This document shows, piece by piece, positions 2 to 45,284 of a stretch of DNA of 64,000 bases. Every line of letters starts with the position of its first letter. Position 1 is the stretch's first letter. The position numbers were made by a program, and so were the translations under genes. This DNA comes from Pseudomonadales bacterium (lineage in GTDB: Bacteria; Pseudomonadota; Gammaproteobacteria; Pseudomonadales; JAHEIH01), in the NCBI GenBank assembly GCA_035458985.1, contig DATHYR010000011.1, positions 23,491-87,490 of the forward strand. Reading direction: 5' to 3'. Under the pieces are notes generated by a model. The model did no database searches. It was not told the origin of the DNA and saw only the letters and a list, made by a program, of their open reading frames with translations.

Positions 2-976
2 CGCGCCCTGACTCGCTTGCTGATCGATATATCACCCAAATATTTTGCCCATGACAAATTAGCCTTCTTCGAAGAAACCGGCGGCGTTGGTATTGAATTT
101 TCTCAACTACCGTTTGATCATTTGATCTTTACCGGCTCTGGTCAAACTGGCCGTAAGGTCATGGCGGCAGCCGCTCAAAACCTTGTGCCGGTGACGCTTG
201 AATTGGGCGGCAAGTGCCCAGCAATTATTGCGCCCGATTACGATTTGGCAAAAGCCGTTGAGCGCATTATGTTTGTCAAATTATTCAATGCTGGCCAGAT
301 CTGTACTAACGTTGACTATGTCTTTGTGCCCAGCGACAAACGCCAGCCGTTTATTGATTTGTGCATGGATTACGTGCAGCAGCACTGCCCTGATATCAAT
401 AGTCCAGACTTCACGTCTATTATTGATGACGTCGCCTACCGTCGTGTCCTGGAAACCATTGATGACGCGAAAGACAAAGGTGCAACTGTTATTAATATGC
501 AACCCGAGCAAGTATCTGCAGAGGGCATGCGCAAAGTCGCACCCCACTTGATTTTAGACACCACGGAAGAGATGAACATTCGTCACCGCGAGACCTTTGG
601 CCCGCTGCTTATGGTGCACACCTATGACAGTCCACAACAAGCCATCGATTACATTAATCATCGCGACCGACCTTTGGCAATCTATCCGTTCAGTAACGAT
701 AAAGCGTTGATTCAGCGCTATATCGATAGCACCATGTCTGGCGGTGTTTCCGTGAATGACGCGTTATTCCATGTTGCTCAGCACGACTTACCGTTTGGTG
801 GCGTTGGAGCGAGCGGCATGGGGCACTATCACGGTTTTGATGGTTTCCTGACCTTCTCAAAACTTCGTCCAGTGTTTTATCAAGCACCGGTGACAGCGAT
901 GAAATTCTTGGCACCTCCTTACGGCAATTTCGCCACCAAAATGTTAAACTTCTTGACCAAATTTAATTCGCGCTAG
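2..976 (+). CDS. Aldehyde dehydrogenase family protein (coniferyl-aldehyde-DH-like), C-terminal part; 5' end lies outside the window
   Basis: The reading frame is open to the left edge. ALDH signatures are present: ELGGKCP, the catalytic-Cys motif FNAGQICTNVDY, and PFGGVGASGMG. Confidence 0.85.
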   Translation, partial: RALTRLLIDISPKYFAHDKLAFFEETGGVGIEFSQLPFDHLIFTGSGQTGRKVMAAAAQNLVPVTLELGGKCPAIIAPDYDLAKAVERIMFVKLFNAGQICTNVDYVFVPSDKRQPFIDLCMDYVQQHCPDINSPDFTSIIDDVAYRRVLETIDDAKDKGATVINMQPEQVSAEGMRKVAPHLILDTTEEMNIRHRETFGPLLMVHTYDSPQQAIDYINHRDRPLAIYPFSNDKALIQRYIDSTMSGGVSVNDALFHVAQHDLPFGGVGASGMGHYHGFDGFLTFSKLRPVFYQAPVTAMKFLAPPYGNFATKMLNFLTKFNSR

Positions 977-36203: not shown

Positions 36204-37577
36204 TTATCTACGCCGAGCGAGACGCTTTTCGATCGCGGCGATCATGGCGCCAGCAATATCGTTACCCGTCGCCGTCTCTATGCCTTCTAAACCGGGCGAA
36301 GAATTCACCTCGAGCAACAAAGGCCCTTTACTGGAGCGAATGATATCAACCCCGGCCACCTGCAGCCCAAGGGTCTTGGCAGCTTTAATTGCCAACTTTC
36401 GCTCTGCTGGGGTAATTTTGACCACCGACGCCGTGCCTCCTTGGTGGATGTTGGCACGAAACTCTCCAGGTGCGGCGGTTCGCATAATAGAGGACACCAC
36501 CTTACCGCCAATCACAAAACATCGCAGATCTTTACCATCCGCTTCCTTGACGAATTCCTGCACGAGCAAGTTTGCACGGAGTGATTTAATCGCATTGATG
36601 ACACTCTCCGCTGCCTTATCGGTTTCAGCTAACACCACGCCCTTACCTTGCGTACCCTCTAATAACTTCACAATCAGCGGAGCACCGCCCACCATTTGTA
36701 TTAAATCATTGGTATCGGCCGGCGAGTTGGCAAAACCCGTAGTGGGAATATCGAGACCACTCTTCTGTAAAAGCTGTAACGAGTAAAGCTTATCGCGAGA
36801 GCTGGCTATAGATTCCGCGTTATTCTGGACATAAACACCCAAACTTTCGAAGTGGCGAGTAAGCGCACACCCATAAAACGTAATACTGGGACGAATACGC
36901 GGTATGAGCGCATCCAAATCATTGACCACATTACCACCGCGGTAATGAACTTCCGGGGCATCAGCATCGAGTTTCATATAACACTGCTTGATGTTCAAAA
37001 ACACCATTTCGTGCCCACGGGCCTCACCCGCCTCAATGATTCGGCGGTTACTGTAAAGGTCTGGATTGCTGGCTAACACGCCAATTTTCAGTCCACGCTT
37101 AGCCACTGTAGAGACACCATACATCTGGCGAACCTCAGTGATGGTGTGCTCACCCTGCTTAAAGCTGGCCGCAGGATCCACCAAAATTCGCCCCATCATG
37201 GCCTCTCGGCCTAACAACATACGGTATCCCATACTGTCGCGATTAGTCAGTGTTAGCTCAATTTCCCACTGATGCCCACCAATGTGAATTGGGGTTTTGA
37301 CCACAAATCGGCGCTCGGTGGTGCCACTGGAGGACTTGACCGTACGGCGATCCACCACCGGGGCTTCGCAACGAATAATGGTGACATCATCCTTTTGGAT
37401 TGGGTGCATATCAAATGACACCCAAGGCTCACCGTTGCGAGTAAAGGTGCGAATATTAAAGGCATGTAAGGCGGAGGTTTTTGCGCCTGAATCGACGCGG
37501 ACTTTAATGATGGGCAAGCCTAAGGACGGCAGTGAACACCACTCTTCACTACCCACGATAAATTTTGTTTCCATCAT
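36204..37577 (-). CDS. rimK: Fusion of a retropepsin-like 'ATP-dependent zinc protease' (RimB-like) domain and RimK alpha-L-glutamate ligase
   Basis: The N-terminal ~140 aa ([31 protein letters not shown]) are followed by an ATP-grasp region ([18 protein letters not shown]...[12 protein letters not shown]). Confidence 0.8.
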
Positions 37578-37636: not shown

Positions 37637-39004
37637 TTACACGTGCTGTAAGGCGTCGGAAAGACGTTTCACGGCAATCACCTGCATACCTTTCACACCA
37701 CCCTTAGGCACGTTAGCCGCCGGCACAATAGCTTTGGTAAAGCCATGCTTGGCTGCTTCAAACAGGCGCTCCTGACCACTAGGCACCGGCCTAATTTCGC
37801 CCGACAAACCCACCTCGCCAAACACCACCATGTCACGAGGTAGTGGGCGATCCTTGAAACTAGAGACAATCGACAACAACGTGGAAAGATCGGCACTGGT
37901 CTCCATGACCTTGACACCACCCACCACGTTAACAAATACGTCCTTATCACCCACCATGAGCCCACCGTGGCGGTGCAGTACCGCCAACAACATTGCCAAC
38001 CGATTTTGATCTAGCCCCACCGCCACACGGCGCGGATTGCCAAAGGGCGAGTCGTCCACCAAGGCCTGAATTTCAACCAACAATGGACGCGTTCCTTCCC
38101 AGACCACCGTCACCAAGCTGCCCGAACTAATTTCTTCGTCTCGAGAAAGAAAAATGGCGGAGGGGTTTTTGACTTCTTTTAAACCCTGCTCCGTCATGGC
38201 GAACACACCTAACTCGTTCACCGCCCCAAAGCGATTTTTTTGGCCGCGCAACGTTCTAAATCGGCTGTCATCGCCGCCTTCCAGCAGAATGGAGCAATCA
38301 ATCATATGCTCAAGCACCTTGGGACCCGCCAACGAACCATCCTTAGTGACATGGCCAACCAGGAATAACACAGTGCCGGTTTGCTTGGCGTATCGCGTCA
38401 GATAGGCCGCACACTCTCGCACCTGGGAAACACTCCCCGGTGCCGAAGAAATATCTGCCATGTGCATGACCTGGATTGAATCAACCACCAGTAACGTAGG
38501 TTGCAAACGCTGTGTTGCCGCACCAATGGCCTCAACGTCAGTTTCCGACATCATCTGCAATTTATCTGTCGGCAGCTTTAGTCGCTGCGCTCGCATAGCC
38601 ACTTGCTGCAATGACTCCTCACCCGTGACGTACAAAGCACTATGTAGTTGGGATAGTAAGCACAATGTCTGTAACAATAAGGTGCTCTTACCGGCGCCAG
38701 GGTGACCACCGATCAAAATCACTGAGCCAGGCACCAAGCCACCCCCCAGCACCCTATCCAACTCGCCGATACCGGTGGTTATTCGGGGCTGTTCTTGCAA
38801 GGCCACTTCAGCCAACGTGGTAATCTCACTTTGACTTCCTGAATACCCACCACGCCGAGGACTGCTAGCCGCTTTGCGGGTCGCAGGGCCAAGCGAAATC
38901 TCGACAATGGTATTCCAGGCGCTGCAATCAGGACATTGGCCCATCCATTTACTGAAGTCTGAGCCGCACTCATTGCAAACGAAGGCGGTGGTGTTTTTAG
39001 CCAT
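37637..39004 (-). CDS. radA: DNA repair protein RadA/Sms
   Basis: Zinc finger [20 protein letters not shown], Walker [20 protein letters not shown] motif, and a Lon-like C-terminus. Confidence 0.95.
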
Positions 39005-39117: not shown

Positions 39118-40254
39118 ATGTCCTTACTTCCCGAAACCCCCATTGCTATTCCGCCTTCTTTAGCTGCCACGCTTGGCTTAGAAGAAGCGGCATTGTTAGT
39201 GGTTCTTCAGGAATGTATGCGCCACAGCGACCTTCAACAGCAACAACAACGGGACTGGCTAACCATTAGCCGTGACCGCTTATTGAGCCTCGTGCCCTTT
39301 TGGACAGACGCGGACGTGCAACGGGTGCTACAAAACCTTCGTGACAAGGGCGTCATTCACGTCGACTCACCCCCCTTCACACAAGCTAATTTCTTGCGCG
39401 TTGCGTTTGATATTCCCAGTCGCATGCCACCAACCCCAGCCCCCTCTGTGAACATAAATCATGTGCCAGCCAATCAGGGCATCGGAGGCAGCCGCCTGAT
39501 CCCGCCTAACTGGCAACCGCCAGACAGCATTCTGCAAACACTAAAACAATTTAATGGTATTGATATAGCCTTTGCAGAATCTCAAGTGGCCCCCTTTGTT
39601 GTCTACTGGACTGAAAAGCGGGCAACAGCGGCGTCGTGGAGCAACAAATTCCGCTCATGGGTGTTGCGTGAATGGCGCGATAGAGAATCAGACTATTTAA
39701 AACCCAGCAACGACATTCCTATGCCGATGTACCGAGAATGGCAACCTTCGCGGGATGCGCTTGAGATTCTCAACAAGTCTGGTATTAGCCAAGCCTTCAT
39801 CGAAGATTGCGTTCCAGAATTTGTGCTCTACTGGCAAGAGCGCGGGGAAGCCTTAAAAACCTGGAATACTAAGTTTATTCAGCATATTCGAAACCAGTGG
39901 GAACGCTATACGAATGCCACACGCTTTGATAGCGAACCGCGTCGCATCGACGCGCAATGGCAGCCTAGCAACGATGTCTACGATGTACTGACCTTTGCAA
40001 ACATCGATATCGACTTTGCACGCCAACTCGTGCCAGAATTCGTCATGTACTGGCGCGAGAGTAATCGCGTGCAATCGTCATGGAACAGCAAATTCTTACA
40101 GCATGTTAAATATCGCTGGGCTCAGCGGCACCACATGCCAAACGCACTGAGTACGGGACAGCAACATGAAAAGCATCGATCATTTGGCCAACGAGGCGAA
40201 CAAAAGTCTGACATCATCGAGCGACTTGTCGACCGAAGCTGGGCCCAAAGCTAG
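39118..40254 (+). CDS. Winged-helix-like N-domain + three DnaT-like repeats; candidate lambda-O-derived replication protein (DopC-like)
   Basis: Three ~65-aa repeats (39499..40131) share W-Q-P...F-x-x-Y-W...(S/T)-W-(N/S)-x-K-F...W. Confidence 0.6.
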   Translation: MSLLPETPIAIPPSLAATLGLEEAALLVVLQECMRHSDLQQQQQRDWLTISRDRLLSLVPFWTDADVQRVLQNLRDKGVIHVDSPPFTQANFLRVAFDIPSRMPPTPAPSVNINHVPANQGIGGSRLIPPNWQPPDSILQTLKQFNGIDIAFAESQVAPFVVYWTEKRATAASWSNKFRSWVLREWRDRESDYLKPSNDIPMPMYREWQPSRDALEILNKSGISQAFIEDCVPEFVLYWQERGEALKTWNTKFIQHIRNQWERYTNATRFDSEPRRIDAQWQPSNDVYDVLTFANIDIDFARQLVPEFVMYWRESNRVQSSWNSKFLQHVKYRWAQRHHMPNALSTGQQHEKHRSFGQRGEQKSDIIERLVDRSWAQS

Positions 40255-40831
40255 CCGCCCCGTCTATAGTGATGACCTGATTGATGCTATCAATACCGTT
40301 TTCACTCAGTTTGAAGTGGCCTTCCCCAACTTATACAACCGCGCCTACAGTAGCGACAACGCCATCATGCTGGCAAAGCAGCTATGGGCGAATTCACTCC
40401 AAGAATTCAGTGGTGAACAAATTTTACGCGCCTGCCAGAAGGCCATTGAATCGTCTGATTTCATCCCAACCATCCACAATGTGCTCAGCCATTGTCGACA
40501 AGACCTGAGCAGTTACGGCCTTCCTTCACCGCGCGACGCCTATATTGAAGCTTGCAACGCCAGCGAGCCGCGGGCGGAATTCTCATGGAGCCACCCAGCG
40601 GTGTATTTTGCCGGTCGAGACGCTGGCTGGTTTTTTCTATCGAGTAATATCGAGAGCAAGGCCATGCCCGTGTTTGAAGCGGCTTATCGCAAAGTCTGCG
40701 ACCGTGTCTTGGCAGGAGAAAAATTAGCCATGCCCAACGCGCAGCGACTGCCAAGTGAAACAGCGACGCCTTTAAGCGCCGAGGAAAAAGTGCAGCGCAT
40801 GGCTGCGCTGCGCAAAGAGATAGGACTGTAA
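40166..40831 (+). CDS. Phage-lambda-P-like replication (helicase loader-type) protein (DopE-like)
   Basis: INTVFTQFEVAFPNLYNRAY..AKQLWANSL...SDFIPTIHNVLSHC parallels lambda P IINGVFSQLLATFPASLANRD..RRQWVLAF...RPFLPSPGQFVAWC (recalled from memory). The ATG at 40166 overlaps the upstream gene by 89 nt. Confidence 0.6.
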   Translation: MKSIDHLANEANKSLTSSSDLSTEAGPKASRPVYSDDLIDAINTVFTQFEVAFPNLYNRAYSSDNAIMLAKQLWANSLQEFSGEQILRACQKAIESSDFIPTIHNVLSHCRQDLSSYGLPSPRDAYIEACNASEPRAEFSWSHPAVYFAGRDAGWFFLSSNIESKAMPVFEAAYRKVCDRVLAGEKLAMPNAQRLPSETATPLSAEEKVQRMAALRKEIGL

Positions 40832-41659: not shown

Positions 41660-43099
41660 TCAGTATTCGTCACGATACTCCATCGCCAAATTTTCGAAAC
41701 GCGTGTATTTGTTCACGAAGGCAAGCTTACACGTACCAATGGGGCCGTTACGCTGCTTACCGATAATGATTTCAGCTATACCCTTTTGATCTGTGTCTTC
41801 GTTATAGACTTCGTCACGGTAAATAAACATGATCACGTCGGCGTCCTGCTCAATCGCCCCTGATTCGCGCAAATCAGAGTTAATAGGACGTTTATTAGGA
41901 CGCTGTTCTAGACTGCGGTTTAGCTGGGACAAGGCCACAACAGGACAATTAAATTCACGGGCCACCGATTTCAACCCACGCGAAATCTCAGAAATCTCTG
42001 CTGTGCGGCCCTCTTTGAAGCCATTGATCTTCATCAGCTGTAGGTAATCCACCATCACCATGCCAATATCGCCATGCTCACGCTGTATTCTACGGAGTCG
42101 AGCGCGAATCTCCATGGGGGATAAGCCGGTTGAATCGTCGATAAACAGTGGCTTGTCTTTCATCTTGCGGACAGCCGTACTCAACTTCGGCCAATCCTCT
42201 TCGGTGAGCTTACCGGAGAAGACATGTTTTACATCAATTCTGCCGAGCGAACCGATCATACGCTTGACGATATCCTCGGCGGGCATCTCCATACTAAACA
42301 CCACGACAGGCTTAGATACCGCCAACATAGCATTTTCAACCAAGTTCATAGCGAACGTGGTTTTTCCCATCGAAGGACGACCCGCCACAATAACCAAGTT
42401 AGAGCGCTGTAGACCTGAGGTCATCTCATCGAGCCGCTCAAAACCTGTCGTAACCCCGGTAATGGCACTATCTGAATGAAAGAGCTCGTCAATTTGCGTG
42501 AGGGTTTTCTCGAGCACAGGATTAACGTACTGAGGTCCGCCTTCATTGGGGCGATCATCGCGAATGCGCAGAATGGTATTCTCGGCATTCTCAAGTAGCT
42601 CATCACTGGATTGTCCAGCGCTATCGTAGGCGCGATCAACAATATCCGACGCCGTCGCTATCAACTGTCGCAGTGTTGCCTTTTCACGCACTATATTGGC
42701 ATAGGCGCGAATATTCGCCGTGCTAGGGGTATTCTCAGCCAACACCGCCAGATAAGCCAGTCCACCAACCCTATCAAGCTCGCCTAGCACCTGGAGTTTA
42801 TCCGCCACCGTCACTACATCGATGGGTTGCTCTGCAGCCACTAAACCAGACATAGTGTCAAACAGCAGACGGTGATCTGCACGGTAAAAATCTTGGCTGC
42901 TCAGAACATCTGACACCATATCCCAAGCATTACCTTGGTCGCCAGCCGTTAGCATGAGACCACCGAGAACCGACTGCTCCGCCTCGATCGAGTGCGGGAC
43001 AATCTTCAGTGGCGTGTCAAAGCCTGCAGACAGTGACTCTTCAAACTGATCGTAGTCTGATCCTGCGTATTCTTCGTCTGGTAGTGGGATATCTTCCAT
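41660..43099 (-). CDS. dnaB: Replicative DNA helicase DnaB
   Basis: PHSIEAEQSVLGGLM, Walker A GRPSMGKTTFAMN, and SQLNRSLEQR. I chose the ATG at 43099 (MEDIPL...) over the TTG at 43114. Confidence 0.95.
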   Translation of the reverse strand: MEDIPLPDEEYAGSDYDQFEESLSAGFDTPLKIVPHSIEAEQSVLGGLMLTAGDQGNAWDMVSDVLSSQDFYRADHRLLFDTMSGLVAAEQPIDVVTVADKLQVLGELDRVGGLAYLAVLAENTPSTANIRAYANIVREKATLRQLIATASDIVDRAYDSAGQSSDELLENAENTILRIRDDRPNEGGPQYVNPVLEKTLTQIDELFHSDSAITGVTTGFERLDEMTSGLQRSNLVIVAGRPSMGKTTFAMNLVENAMLAVSKPVVVFSMEMPAEDIVKRMIGSLGRIDVKHVFSGKLTEEDWPKLSTAVRKMKDKPLFIDDSTGLSPMEIRARLRRIQREHGDIGMVMVDYLQLMKINGFKEGRTAEISEISRGLKSVAREFNCPVVALSQLNRSLEQRPNKRPINSDLRESGAIEQDADVIMFIYRDEVYNEDTDQKGIAEIIIGKQRNGPIGTCKLAFVNKYTRFENLAMEYRDEY

Positions 43100-43144
43100 G
43101 TCACCGATTAGCAAGGGAGCGTTTAAAAGAGCATCGATAATAAA

Positions 43145-43220: not shown

Positions 43221-43667
43221 TTACTCAGCAGCAATGGTCAGATTGATAACAGCAGTGACTTCGCTATGAAGCTGTACGTCAATTTCGTATTGACCCACTT
43301 CACGCAGTGCACCATTGGGCAAGCGAACTTCGCTTTTGTTTGCTTCTACACCAGCCGCAACGATCGCTTCAGCGATGTCACGCGTGCCGATAGAACCAAA
43401 CAACTTACCTTCATCGCCAGCTTTAGATGTAATCGTCACTTCTAAGCCCTGCAGTTTTTCACCGCGTGCTTTGGCAGCCGCCAAGGCTTCTGCTGAGGCT
43501 TTTTCTAACTCAGCGCGACGCGCTTCGAAATCAGCAATGTTTGCTTCGGTTGCAGGAACAGCTTTGCCAAAAGGCAACAGGTAGTTGCGGCCATAGCCAG
43601 CATTAACCTTAACTTTGTCACCCAGACCACCCAATTTACCTACTTTTTCCAGAAGAATAACTTCCAT
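43221..43667 (-). CDS. rplI: 50S ribosomal protein L9
   Basis: [36 protein letters not shown]. Confidence 0.95.
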
Positions 43668-43716
43668 CTTAAGTACCCTCTATGTATTTGCGCGACGTCT
43701 AATCGCGATTCTTATC

Positions 43717-44580
43717 TTACGCCGCAGTACGGTTTACGCGACGACGCACATCTATAAAACTATCAATGACCGCTAATAAGCAGATCACCCATTTAACTGG
43801 ATCAATTAACACTACACTGAAGTACAGTAACCACAGCCAACGTCGAGTGTTGTGGGCGCGATTGAACAAGTAATGCAACAACCCCAGTCCACTCATCAGT
43901 AGCGGCACCGATATCGCGGTAGCCCACAACGCGTATTCATTACCCAGCGTCAAACAGTAACCTGCAGACAACAGCAGCGCCGCTGCTGGACGGTAACTGA
44001 GCCTCAAATGGTGAAACTCTTTTGCAAAACCGCCTGGGTTGTAGAGCGTAGCTTGCCACCAACGCGCTAACAAAATACTCACTGAGGCACACAACGTATG
44101 CATCACCACCAAGCCACCGCTAATCAACTCTCTGCCAGGAGCAATAATATTTGCAGCACCTGGAGCGTCGGTTGGCAGGCCTTGGCGCCACTGCGCCACA
44201 AGCTCATCCATTACCTGCACAAGGAAGTCTAAATAAGGCGATGCAATGGTGAGCAATGCTACACCTAACAACACCCCAGTTACCGGAGCAACGATCAAGG
44301 TTAATGCCAAAGAAACAGTGTTTCGCAACACCACCGCCAGCAAAAACGCCGCTATCAAATTCGCCAGTGGCAATACCTCTGCAAGGAGATAAAGCACGGC
44401 ACCTGCCGGTAACAAAGACCACAACAGAAGGATAAGACCCTCTGACGTTCCTTTGCGCAACGTAACTAGAGCTACGACTGCCGCACCGACCCAAAAAAAC
44501 AACGACGTGCCGGTGCTTAAAACTGCGACTAACAATGCGGTCGCTCGGCGCCGCATTGCAAATTCAGCTAATGAACGCAT
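43717..44580 (-). CDS. Polytopic inner-membrane protein (DUF2232-like?) between rpsR and rplI
   Basis: Six to eight hydrophobic helices. The position matches the hypothetical membrane gene found between rpsR and rplI in pseudomonads (recalled). Confidence 0.55.
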   Translation of the reverse strand: MRSLAEFAMRRRATALLVAVLSTGTSLFFWVGAAVVALVTLRKGTSEGLILLLWSLLPAGAVLYLLAEVLPLANLIAAFLLAVVLRNTVSLALTLIVAPVTGVLLGVALLTIASPYLDFLVQVMDELVAQWRQGLPTDAPGAANIIAPGRELISGGLVVMHTLCASVSILLARWWQATLYNPGGFAKEFHHLRLSYRPAAALLLSAGYCLTLGNEYALWATAISVPLLMSGLGLLHYLFNRAHNTRRWLWLLYFSVVLIDPVKWVICLLAVIDSFIDVRRRVNRTAA

Positions 44581-44612
44581 TTAACCTCTCGGTGATACGT
44601 TCAGATCCACAC

Positions 44613-44840
44613 TTAATTGTGTGAATCAGTGTAAGGAATCAACGCCAAGTAACGCGCGCGCTTGATGGCAGTAGCCAACTGACGCTGATACTTAGCATTG
44701 GTGCCAGTAATACGACTTGGAACAATCTTGCCAGTCTCTGAAATATACGCTTTCAGAGTTTCCAAATCTTTATAATCAATTTGCTTTACGCCTTCAGCGG
44801 TAAAGCGACAGAACTTACGACGACGGAAAAAACGTGCCAT
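44613..44840 (-). CDS. rpsR: 30S ribosomal protein S18
   Basis: [47 protein letters not shown]. Confidence 0.95.
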
Positions 44841-44864
44841 GTTAAATCTCCTTGACCGCTAGGG

Positions 44865-45284
44865 TTATTCTTCGTTTGCGTCTTCGTCAGCTGAATCATC
44901 AGCATCGACTTCAGCAACTGCTTCTTCACGCGATGGACGACGCTCACGACGCTCGCGGCTCTCTTTCTCACCCTTCATGATCAGCGACTCTTCGGTAACA
45001 GCATCATCCATGCGGATAACCAAGTTACGCAGTACAGCATCGTTGTAGCGGAAAGAAGAATCCAACTCAGCCATCACAGCTTCGTTCGCTTCTATGTTCA
45101 TCAGCACGTAGTGTGCCTTGTGGATTTTGTTGATTGGATAAGCCAGTTGACGGCGGCCCCAATCTTCAAGACGATGGATAGCACCACCTTCTTTAGTGAT
45201 CAATTGTGAGTAGCGCTCGATCATGCCGGGCACTTGCTCGCTCTGGTCGGGGTGGACCATAAAAACAACTTCGTAGTGACGCAT
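44865..45284 (-). CDS. rpsF: 30S ribosomal protein S6
   Basis: [25 protein letters not shown], with an acidic C-terminal tail ending ...DEDANEE. Confidence 0.95.

Follow-up and report, generated by a model that had tools for sequence, protein, structure and literature searches.

A resident dopC/dopE pair beside dnaB: a lambda P-family candidate helicase loader, its partner with three DnaT-type domains, and their conserved gene overlap

How the replicative helicase is loaded in bacteria that have neither DciA nor DnaC is an open question, to which the DopC/DopE pair was proposed in 2017 as a third answer. Brezellec et al. (Genome Biol Evol, PMC5509034) described dopE, a lambda P-like gene, and dopC, which lies upstream of it and encodes a DnaT C-terminal motif, as residents of Cellvibrionales and of some Oceanospirillales; these lineages were reported to be without dciA and dnaC/dnaI, and the pair was put forward as a third type of helicase 'matchmaker'. 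The question is raised here by two overlapping genes that lie between radA and dnaB on the forward strand of a 64,000-nucleotide (nt) stretch of DNA from a Pseudomonadales bacterium, hereafter the window. A first-pass annotation, made from the letters alone, had taken these genes for a lambda O/P-like pair of the dopC/dopE type on the strength of a phylogenomic study; that study is real, both open reading frames (ORFs) are present where they had been placed, and we conclude, with little room for doubt, that they are orthologous to dopC and dopE and form an ordinary member of a known system. The pair is resident and chromosomal in a Cellvibrionales-type gammaproteobacterium. The list of such systems gains nothing from this locus; what is added comes from the comparison of 80 related loci, which shows conserved details that are undescribed in the literature that we found.

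DopE belongs to the lambda P family by profile, by sequence and by fold. Its match to Phage_lambda_P (PF06992) has an expectation value (E) of 5.1e-14 and scores 52.8 bits, the cut-off being 26; PHROG 109 ('P-like helicase loader') is matched at 1e-24, and between residue 42 and its end at residue 221 BLASTP gives 26% identity with lambda P (E 4e-8), in keeping with the collinearity that had been read by eye. An AlphaFold2 (AF2) model was obtained from a 61-sequence alignment with a mean predicted local distance difference test (pLDDT) score of 79.7, and its sole significant Foldseek match in the PDB is 9oa1_Y, which is lambda P in the E. coli DnaB6:P5 complex (E 4e-4, probability 1.00, 194 columns). 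Lambda P consists of an N-terminal lasso (residues 1-29), domain II (30-119), domain III (120-192) and a C-terminal lasso (193-233), whose helix inserts at the docking-helix/linker-helix (DH-LH) junction of adjacent DnaB subunits (PMC12661323). The DopE model follows the same plan of domains I-IV, with a terminal helix, a disordered link, two compact domains, a second disordered link and a second terminal helix (Table 1). The Pfam match spans residues 41-188, the first compact domain also resembles the N-domain of the SPP1 loader G39P (1no1, probability 0.98), and the C-terminal helix aligns with the C-terminus of lambda P (PLSAEEKVQRMAALRKEIGL in DopE, PLNRAQALAKIAEIKAKFGL in lambda P). The N-terminal helix may likewise correspond to the N-terminal lasso. 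One public annotation of DopE (201 amino acids (aa), 'replication protein P') begins 20 codons later, at the TTG at 40226; the 20 N-terminal residues are kept in distant homologues and, because this helix is conserved, the true start is probably the ATG at 40166, the annotated one being probably misplaced so that the conserved helix is cut off.

DopC, in turn, is a DnaT-domain protein with an initiator-like N-terminus. Pfam DnaT (PF17948) matches it three times (E 1.4e-66 for the whole protein), and a protein 100% identical to it carries the name 'DnaT-like ssDNA-binding domain-containing protein', where ssDNA is single-stranded DNA; both window proteins are 100% identical to proteins of a metagenome-assembled genome (MAG) labelled 'Pseudomonadales bacterium'. 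The signature that had been noticed in the letters (WQP ... F-V-x-Y-W ... S/T-W-N/S-x-K-F ... W) recurs in all three repeats, and a hidden Markov model (HMM) built from the three copies recovers each of them over 39499..40149, as compared with the 39499..40131 noted before. The DopC family profile matches the solved C-terminal domain of E. coli DnaT (4ou6/4ou7/9zbu) at repeat 1 with E about 1e-3, the structures matched also including 2ru8 and the preprimosome entries 9zbt/9zbu of 2026, and of full-length DnaT it covers no more than the C-terminal part (chain positions 83-146); because the N-terminal oligomerisation domain and the PriB-docking linker of DnaT were not found in DopC, we regard it as a DnaT-domain protein and not as a DnaT orthologue. 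The DnaT residues that we take to contact ssDNA, W140 and K143, align in repeat 1 with a Trp and a Lys that are invariant or nearly so. In repeats 2 and 3 the same W-x-x-K motif is again invariant or nearly so, the residue-by-residue alignment with DnaT covering repeat 1. The AF2 model (mean pLDDT 83.5) bears out the winged-helix-like N-terminus of the first-pass annotation with high confidence. In the PDB, the top Foldseek matches of DopC are the N-domains of plasmid RepA initiators (4pt7, 4pql), followed by winged-helix regulators of the CRP and CodY types, with RepE and ORC1 further down; DnaT was not returned by this search with the whole model, because the DnaT-type domains are small and the N-domain dominates. 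Among predicted viral structures (BFVD), the N-domain matches 13 phage proteins at E<=1e-3, with further, weaker matches listed, and their names include replication protein, replication initiator and replisome organizer. For the gene and domain content observed in both proteins, chance is excluded by the E-values.

Are these two genes a working part of the chromosome, or what is left of a phage? Full-length homologues of DopC (coverage 89-99%, E about 1e-97 to 1e-104) occur in lineages for which PMC5509034 reports the pair, namely in Teredinibacter turnerae, Cellvibrio, Halioglobus, Gilvimarinus and Marinimicrobium, related DopE loci come from Simiduia, Zhongshania, Haliea and Cellvibrio, and relatives of DopE were found in at least 555 genomes by a scan that took one genome per species, the best 80 of these making up the locus comparison. 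In 79 of 79 related loci whose upstream region is available, as in the window, dopE is immediately preceded by dopC on its own strand. Synteny is conserved across the 80 loci, which belong to Cellvibrionaceae, Halieaceae, Spongiibacteraceae, Pseudohongiellaceae and others: radA is divergent upstream of dopC in about half of them, and a dnaB-rplI-DUF2232-rpsR-rpsF block follows dopCE in about 20, mainly from Halieaceae, Spongiibacteraceae/Zhongshania and Litorivivens. That the pair might be a decaying prophage replication module with no function for the host has in its favour that both proteins fall in phage-associated families (PHROGs 109 and 1032, and BFVD matches to phage replication proteins). 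However, the neighbours are core genes, as had been claimed (radA, dnaB, rplI-rpsR-rpsF), and among the window ORFs that were scanned against Pfam, which are a part of the total, there are no phage-type, DciA or IstB/DnaC domains, a result that says little about the whole genome. What these scans did return is of the housekeeping kind throughout: a riboflavin operon, nusB, thiL, pgpA, nrdR, motAB, a polyprenyl synthetase, a RimK-like fusion, radA, dnaB and a MarR regulator. Furthermore, in about 80 loci, at 40-90% identity, both ORFs are intact and neighbour each other within a conserved chromosomal order, they are under strong purifying selection that includes the dual-coding overlap, and DopE shares 38-92% identity with DopE of Cellvibrionales and Oceanospirillales as against 25-30% with the closest phage P proteins, these being pairwise identities. 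We consider the prophage remnant effectively refuted by the housekeeping context of the window ORFs scanned, the synteny and the purifying selection, and give it next to no credence. As a side observation, dopC-dopE pairs typical of the Cellvibrionales type (40-44% identity) are found on two contigs that are labelled as MAGs of 'uncultured Klebsiella sp.' and 'Rhodoferax sp.' and are probably mis-binned or mislabelled.

The first of the conserved details is the number of repeats. The triple DnaT architecture had been thought worth characterising; it is no peculiarity of this locus, three repeats being the family norm, found in 119 of 121 homologous proteins and at 78 of 80 genomic loci, while the DopC proteins of the Teredinibacter type have four. 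When 1.84 billion representatives were searched exhaustively with the winged helix alone, no more than 321 clusters matched at E<=1e-3. Of the 149 representatives that were new in this search, 34 have three DnaT repeats, five have four, ten have two, 18 have one and 82 have none, many of the entries with low counts being short fragments or phage-like proteins. Two oddities were met in these comparisons. A giant protein of 3655 aa holds 42 tandem stretches that match residues 53-97 of the DopC winged helix (E 1e-76), with no DnaT repeats. In Dasania phycosphaerae (L025, 9216..9875), the ORF upstream of dopE has 219 aa and two DnaT repeats, no winged helix was detected in it and its stop lies 126 nt before dopE; a truncation or frameshift of dopC could account for this, as could an error of assembly.

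The second detail is the overlap between the two genes, counted from the first in-frame ATG of dopE to the stop of dopC. It measures 89 nt in 48 loci, the window included, and 92 nt in 13, the relative frame being always the same, and both its length and the two peptides that it encodes are kept across loci that share only about 40% identity in protein. The entropy per site is 0.7-1.26 bits within the overlap as compared with 1.68-1.77 bits in the 30-nt flanks. Over the first 45 nt, which encode the N-terminal helix of DopE, the most variable sites are the third codon positions of dopE; over the last 44 nt, which encode the tail of DopC (consensus RxTDRSWAx-stop in 48 loci), they are those of dopC. 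In this tail, D372, S374, W375 and A376 are invariant among 61 DopC proteins and R373 is at least 90% conserved, and variants of D-x-S-W-A are kept across the representatives of the DopC family at 50% identity. This tail is presumably not present in E. coli DnaT. A phage protein of 265 aa, found in an IMG/VR contig (UViG_3300037424_000596; L085:2862-3659), has two DnaT domains, shares 48% identity with DopC repeats 2-3 and closes with LTDRSWAE; its N-terminus differs from that of DopC, and there is no P-like gene alongside, the neighbours being an SNF2/DEAD helicase, two DNA methylases, DUF1367 and NinG on a contig that also encodes an M15 peptidase. Because this protein has the tail with no P-like gene next to it, the tail is not a by-product of the overlap. 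As judged from sequence conservation, the overlap may couple the translation of dopC to that of dopE, and both of the peptides encoded there may help to assemble a DopC-DopE-DnaB complex. The text of PMC5509034, searched for repeat terms, has no mention of three tandem DnaT domains as the norm, of the 89-nt overlap, of the D-x-S-W-A tail or of the dissimilarity to lambda O.

That dissimilarity bears on where DopC came from. By HHpred, Brezellec et al. (PMC5509034) related the N-terminus of DopC to that of lambda O through HTH_36. This relationship was not recovered here, although the winged-helix fold is present, and the ancestry of DopC in lambda O was rejected on sequence, four tests being negative: BLASTP of DopC against lambda O found no similarity; hhalign with the DopC N-terminal profile gave a probability of 0.1% for lambda O and of 0.2% for the PF04492-positive O protein of PAJU2; the DopC profile against a lambda O-family profile gave 0.3%, the latter being shallow (effective number of sequences, Neff, 2.5) because the search behind it returned mostly near-identical E. 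coli fragments; and none of 61 DopC proteins matched Phage_rep_O (PF04492) or HTH_36 (PF13730) in Pfam even at E<=1, with lambda O (5.7e-36) and PAJU2 gp63 (3.9e-19) as positive controls for PF04492. Nor was there a match to Phg_2220_C in DopC. A very remote homology, beyond the reach of the shallow O profile, may still link the two proteins. Of the lambda O/P-like label given to the pair by the first-pass annotation, the P part stands, by the profile and fold of DopE, and the O part has no support from sequence, DopC having in common with O its position and a generic initiator-type winged helix; among the profiles, Phage_lambda_P and DnaT match the pair and the phage O N-terminal domain does not.

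A better candidate was found among other phage proteins. The N-domain of DopC is clearly homologous to the N-terminus of a 'DnaD-like primosome initiator' from Stenotrophomonas phage QH16 (hhalign probability 98%, E 3e-14), which also holds one DnaT domain, and the DopC repeats are matched by PHROG 1032 ('replication initiation protein'). Most simply, DopC would stem from a phage organiser in which this winged helix and a DnaT domain were already joined; a lambda O with a swapped C-domain is less simple. Such an origin would change the story of how the pair was domesticated. No phage with the complete DopC-DopE arrangement was found, either in the scan of IMG/VR with the DopC alignment, where L085 was the single locus, or among GenBank phages: those with a DopC-like N-domain (QH16, StM171) have RusA downstream, and in those that carry a P-like gene (PAJU2, P12026) the initiator is either of the O type or unrelated. 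The QH16 protein itself (XCZ72503.1; L002:2986-3852) deserves a remark, since behind its DopC-type winged helix and its single DnaT domain it ends in a C-terminus, PLSPEENRKRFAEAFALLK, that resembles the C-terminal lasso helix of DopE and lambda P. It could be an organiser and a loader in one protein; the resemblance to the DopE helix is weak (17 columns, hhalign probability 7%) and is a lead only.

In phage lambda the origin sits within gene O, and DopC has an initiator-type winged helix, so that DopC might still be an initiator that fires a second, lambda ori-like origin in or beside its own gene. The sequence speaks otherwise. The direct repeats between 38.9 and 41.5 kb are all two-copy and form no iteron-like array, those in dopC (D1, D7) reflecting the repeats of the protein; the window holds 11 DnaA boxes where 14 would be expected, with neither excess nor cluster; the cumulative guanine-cytosine (GC) skew falls steadily over 30-50 kb with no turning point; and in 13 genomes the GC-skew minima lie at gidA-dnaA and not at dopC (PMC5509034). 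We rejected an origin within dopC for want of iterons and of a DnaA-box cluster, and hold the whole idea to be highly implausible; that the dopC locus has no iterons, no such cluster and no turn in GC skew agrees with the conclusion of PMC5509034 that dopC is no origin.

What, then, would the pair do? We think it likely, by analogy with the relatives of both proteins, that DopE loads DnaB in the manner of lambda P with DopC as a DnaT-like ssDNA adaptor, in initiation and probably in restart. Every step of this mechanism is one that we infer, starting from the domain content, homology, fold, conservation, synteny and overlap observed. Several copies of DopE would grip the DnaB hexamer, as lambda P does; the C-terminal helix of DopE would insert at the DH-LH junction between subunits; and DopE would open the DnaB ring into a spiral and deliver it onto ssDNA, in place of DciA or DnaC. 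It is the shared domain plan and the aligned C-terminal lasso that suggest ring opening of the lambda P kind. DopC would be the adaptor, made of a winged helix of the phage replication-organiser type, three linked domains of the DnaT C-terminal type and the D-R-S-W-A tail: its three domains would act as a ready-made DnaT mini-filament that covers a short length of ssDNA, its tail would tether it to DopE and/or DnaB, and it would mark ssDNA at an opened origin or at an abandoned fork for loading by DopE and DnaB. The 89-nt overlap would couple the synthesis of the two proteins. The C-terminal domains (CTDs) of E. coli DnaT assemble on lagging-strand ssDNA into a filament in which each CTD-CTD interface holds 2 nt, and DnaT is assumed, on earlier work, to be a trimer in solution in the methods of the same study (PMC13377028). 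Because DnaT is treated as a trimer and its CTDs form such a filament, the three covalently linked domains of DopC may be, by analogy, a pre-formed filament nucleus.

The helicase itself offers a hint. A residue of the DnaB DH helix, always Ser in species with DciA (S296 in V. cholerae) and Gly, Ala or Asn in species with DnaC (G299 in E. coli), modulates the binding of the loader (Marsin et al. 2021, PMC8216460). Aligned to the DnaB proteins of E. coli and V. cholerae, the window DnaB has Thr313 at this position (nt 42176..42178), and among the dopE-linked DnaB proteins of the window and of 22 related loci the residue is Ala in 13, Ser in five, Thr in four and Gln in one. Such a relaxed Ser rule would fit the replacement of one loader by another at the DH-LH site; since some lineages still have Ser, the evidence is weak.

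This Ser, still found in five of the 23 dopE-linked DnaB proteins, is one of several observations that weigh against DopE and DopC acting together as a loader and its adaptor. The N-terminal helix of DopE was modelled at low confidence (pLDDT about 50). Phage proteins exist that have a DnaT domain and the DRSWA tail with no adjacent P-like gene, so that the tail need not bind DopE. That the genome is without dciA and dnaC is what we would expect from the published lineages, a part of the ORFs of the 64-kb window having been scanned. Finally, and in line with the first-pass annotation, which had called the system biochemically unconfirmed, we found in the literature no experimental study of any DopC or DopE, later papers citing DopE only as a proposed loader.

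A possible though less probable alternative, which overlaps in part with the reading that we favour, is that DopC-DopE is mainly a module for replication restart, analogous to the dnaT-dnaC operon of E. coli: PriA would recognise the abandoned fork, DopC would take the lagging-strand ssDNA and DopE would reload DnaB, with oriC served without DopC or by another route. Restart that depends on PriA/PriB is the sole annotated function of the DnaT domain, and in both gene pairs a gene with a DnaT domain precedes a phage-derived loader gene, a reading that was raised in PMC5509034 too. In addition, priB is not at its usual site between rpsF and rpsR: as had been noted, it is absent there, because the gap is 24 nt long (44841..44864), and the loss of priB accompanies the acquisition of viral loaders in Vibrionaceae (PMC11087808). 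However, DopC has a winged helix in place of the N-terminal domain and linker with which DnaT docks on PriA/PriB, and if there is no other loader in these genomes, as PMC5509034 reports, DopE must serve oriC too. It has also been suggested, as a possible selective advantage, that the pair acts in defence (PMC5509034), in which case it would be kept chiefly because a resident loader of high affinity monopolises DnaB against phages that hijack the helicase; lambda P does out-compete DnaC for DnaB (PMC5509034). Nevertheless, there is no defence-island context, universal vertical inheritance beside core replication genes fits an essential role better, and the DnaT repeats would be left unexplained, so we deem defence very improbable as the main role.

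Going beyond the lambda P-like loading that we favour, one could imagine DopC as a single-chain DnaT trimer or filament nucleus that is wired to the loader by its D-R-S-W-A tail and by the lasso-like helix of DopE, both encoded by the same 89 nt. The two proteins would make up one machine for loading at the origin and for restart without DciA, DnaC, PriB or DnaT, the overlap would be a genetic lock that has held the genes together in hundreds of species ever since domestication, and the pair would go back to a phage DnaD-like/DnaT-domain organiser with a P-type loader and not to a lambda O/P pair. Taken as a whole, this bolder picture strikes us as rather doubtful. Be that as it may, the comparison of 80 loci provides several handles for experiments: the probable true start of dopE, the D-x-S-W-A peptide, the fixed set of three DnaT modules, which matches the reported DnaT trimer, and a DH-helix position in DnaB that is no longer held at Ser.

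The coordinates of the pair, of its parts and of its neighbours are collected in Table 1. The ORF of 185 aa between dopE and dnaB is lineage-specific and is probably outside the dopC/dopE system: it matches nothing in Pfam or NCBIfam and nothing significantly in PHROG, it is confined to the three closest relatives, apart from a 46% match on the opposite strand in Dasania, and it coincides with a local dip in GC content (0.44-0.47 as compared with about 0.50). Apart from the pair, in a single ORF of 457 aa at 36204..37577 on the reverse strand, a complete RimK ATP-grasp ligase (Rimk_N + RimK) is fused with a domain of PF05618 ('putative ATP-dependent zinc protease').

Table 1. Positions of the dopC/dopE genes, of the parts of their products and of the neighbouring genes in the window
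Feature	Residues	Nucleotides	Strand	Description
dopC (gene 1)	1-378	39118..40254	+	ORF, 378 aa: winged-helix N-domain, three DnaT-type domains, C-terminal tail
DopC winged-helix N-domain	6-100	39133..39417	+	AF2 pLDDT mostly 85-97; topology H-H-E-E-H-H-E-E
DopC linker	105-123		+	Disordered (AF2)
DopC DnaT-type blocks			+	Three helical domains joined by links of about 6-9 residues (AF2)
DnaT-type repeat 1	128-194	39499..39699	+	Repeat HMM E 1.3e-34
DnaT-type repeat 2	204-270	39727..39927	+	Repeat HMM E 1.3e-38; best Pfam DnaT stretch, aa 203-268
DnaT-type repeat 3	277-344	39946..40149	+	Repeat HMM E 8.4e-39
DopC post-repeat stretch	347-364		+	Disordered (AF2)
DopC short C-terminal helix	362-377		+	AF2
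DopC C-terminal motif D-R-S-W-A	372-376	40231..40245	+	Two residues before the stop
dopC 3' / dopE 5' overlap		40166..40254	+	89 nt, out of frame, coding in both frames
dopE (gene 2)	1-221	40166..40831	+	ORF, 221 aa: lambda P-family candidate helicase loader
DopE N-terminal helix	2-16	40169..40213	+	AF2 pLDDT about 50; consensus MQxINxLLxxAxKxL; may correspond to domain I of lambda P, the N-terminal lasso
DopE N-terminal link	17-35		+	Disordered (AF2)
DopE compact helical domains	36-112 and 122-182	40271..40711	+	AF2 pLDDT mostly 84-93 (75 around aa 111-120); counterparts of lambda P domains II and III
DopE C-terminal link	183-204		+	Disordered (AF2)
DopE C-terminal helix	205-219	40778..40822	+	AF2 pLDDT about 79-90
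radA		37637..39004	-	Divergent, upstream of dopC; zinc ribbon, KaiC-like ATPase and Lon_C/ChlI domains
Unnamed ORF, 185 aa		40833..41390	-	Between dopE and dnaB; lineage-specific
dnaB		41660..43114	-	Pfam DnaB_C 3.7e-106, DnaB N-domain 2.3e-31; replicative helicase, presumed DopE client
rplI, DUF2232 membrane protein, rpsR, rpsF		43221..45284	-	ORFs; no priB between rpsF and rpsR

Set beside the systems already known, the window pair shows the following similarities and differences: (i) With the published DopC/DopE (PMC5509034) it agrees in families, gene order, adjacency, chromosomal non-prophage context and the absence of origin features from dopC, and there is no essential difference, the window pair being one more member, from an uncultured Pseudomonadales/Cellvibrionales MAG. 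(ii) With lambda P (PF06992; DnaB6:P5 structures 6BBM and 9OA1) DopE shares the family profile, 26% identity nearly from end to end and the fold; in contrast to lambda P, it is resident and vertically inherited, it has a partner that is not O, and its binding to DnaB is presumed. The overlap of the two genes is also different, 89 nt in dopC/dopE as compared with 4 nt in lambda O/P. (iii) Like lambda O (PF04492), DopC is encoded directly upstream of a P-type gene and an N-terminal DNA-binding fold of the winged-helix type is expected in both; unlike it, DopC has three DnaT domains, no C-domain of the Phg_2220_C type and no iterons within its gene, and there is no similarity between the two in sequence or profile. 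(iv) Each repeat of DopC corresponds to a C-terminal-type domain of E. coli DnaT (PF17948; 4OU6, 2RU8, preprimosome 9ZBT/9ZBU), and in dnaT-dnaC, as in dopC-dopE, a DnaT-domain gene precedes a phage-derived loader gene. However, a single domain of this type is present in DnaT, which oligomerises, as against three within the one chain of DopC, and the N-domain and PriB-docking linker of DnaT are replaced in DopC by the winged helix. (v) The phage 'DnaD-like primosome initiators' with a DnaT domain (PHROG 1032, 11233 and 6493; XCZ72503.1 of Stenotrophomonas phage vB_SmaS_QH16) have the closest phage architecture to DopC that we found, although the QH16 protein has one DnaT domain and no DRSWA tail, and RusA lies downstream of its gene instead of a P-like gene. 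(vi) VdhL1 and VdhL2 of Vibrionaceae (Tominaga et al. 2024, PMC11087808) are, like DopE, virus-derived replacements of DciA with a companion gene upstream and with loss of priB. They belong to another family, PF06992 being undetected in them by PfamScan, and stimulation of DnaB in vitro has been shown for VdhL; moreover, VdhL was acquired repeatedly and recently, whereas DopE was acquired once, in an old ancestor.

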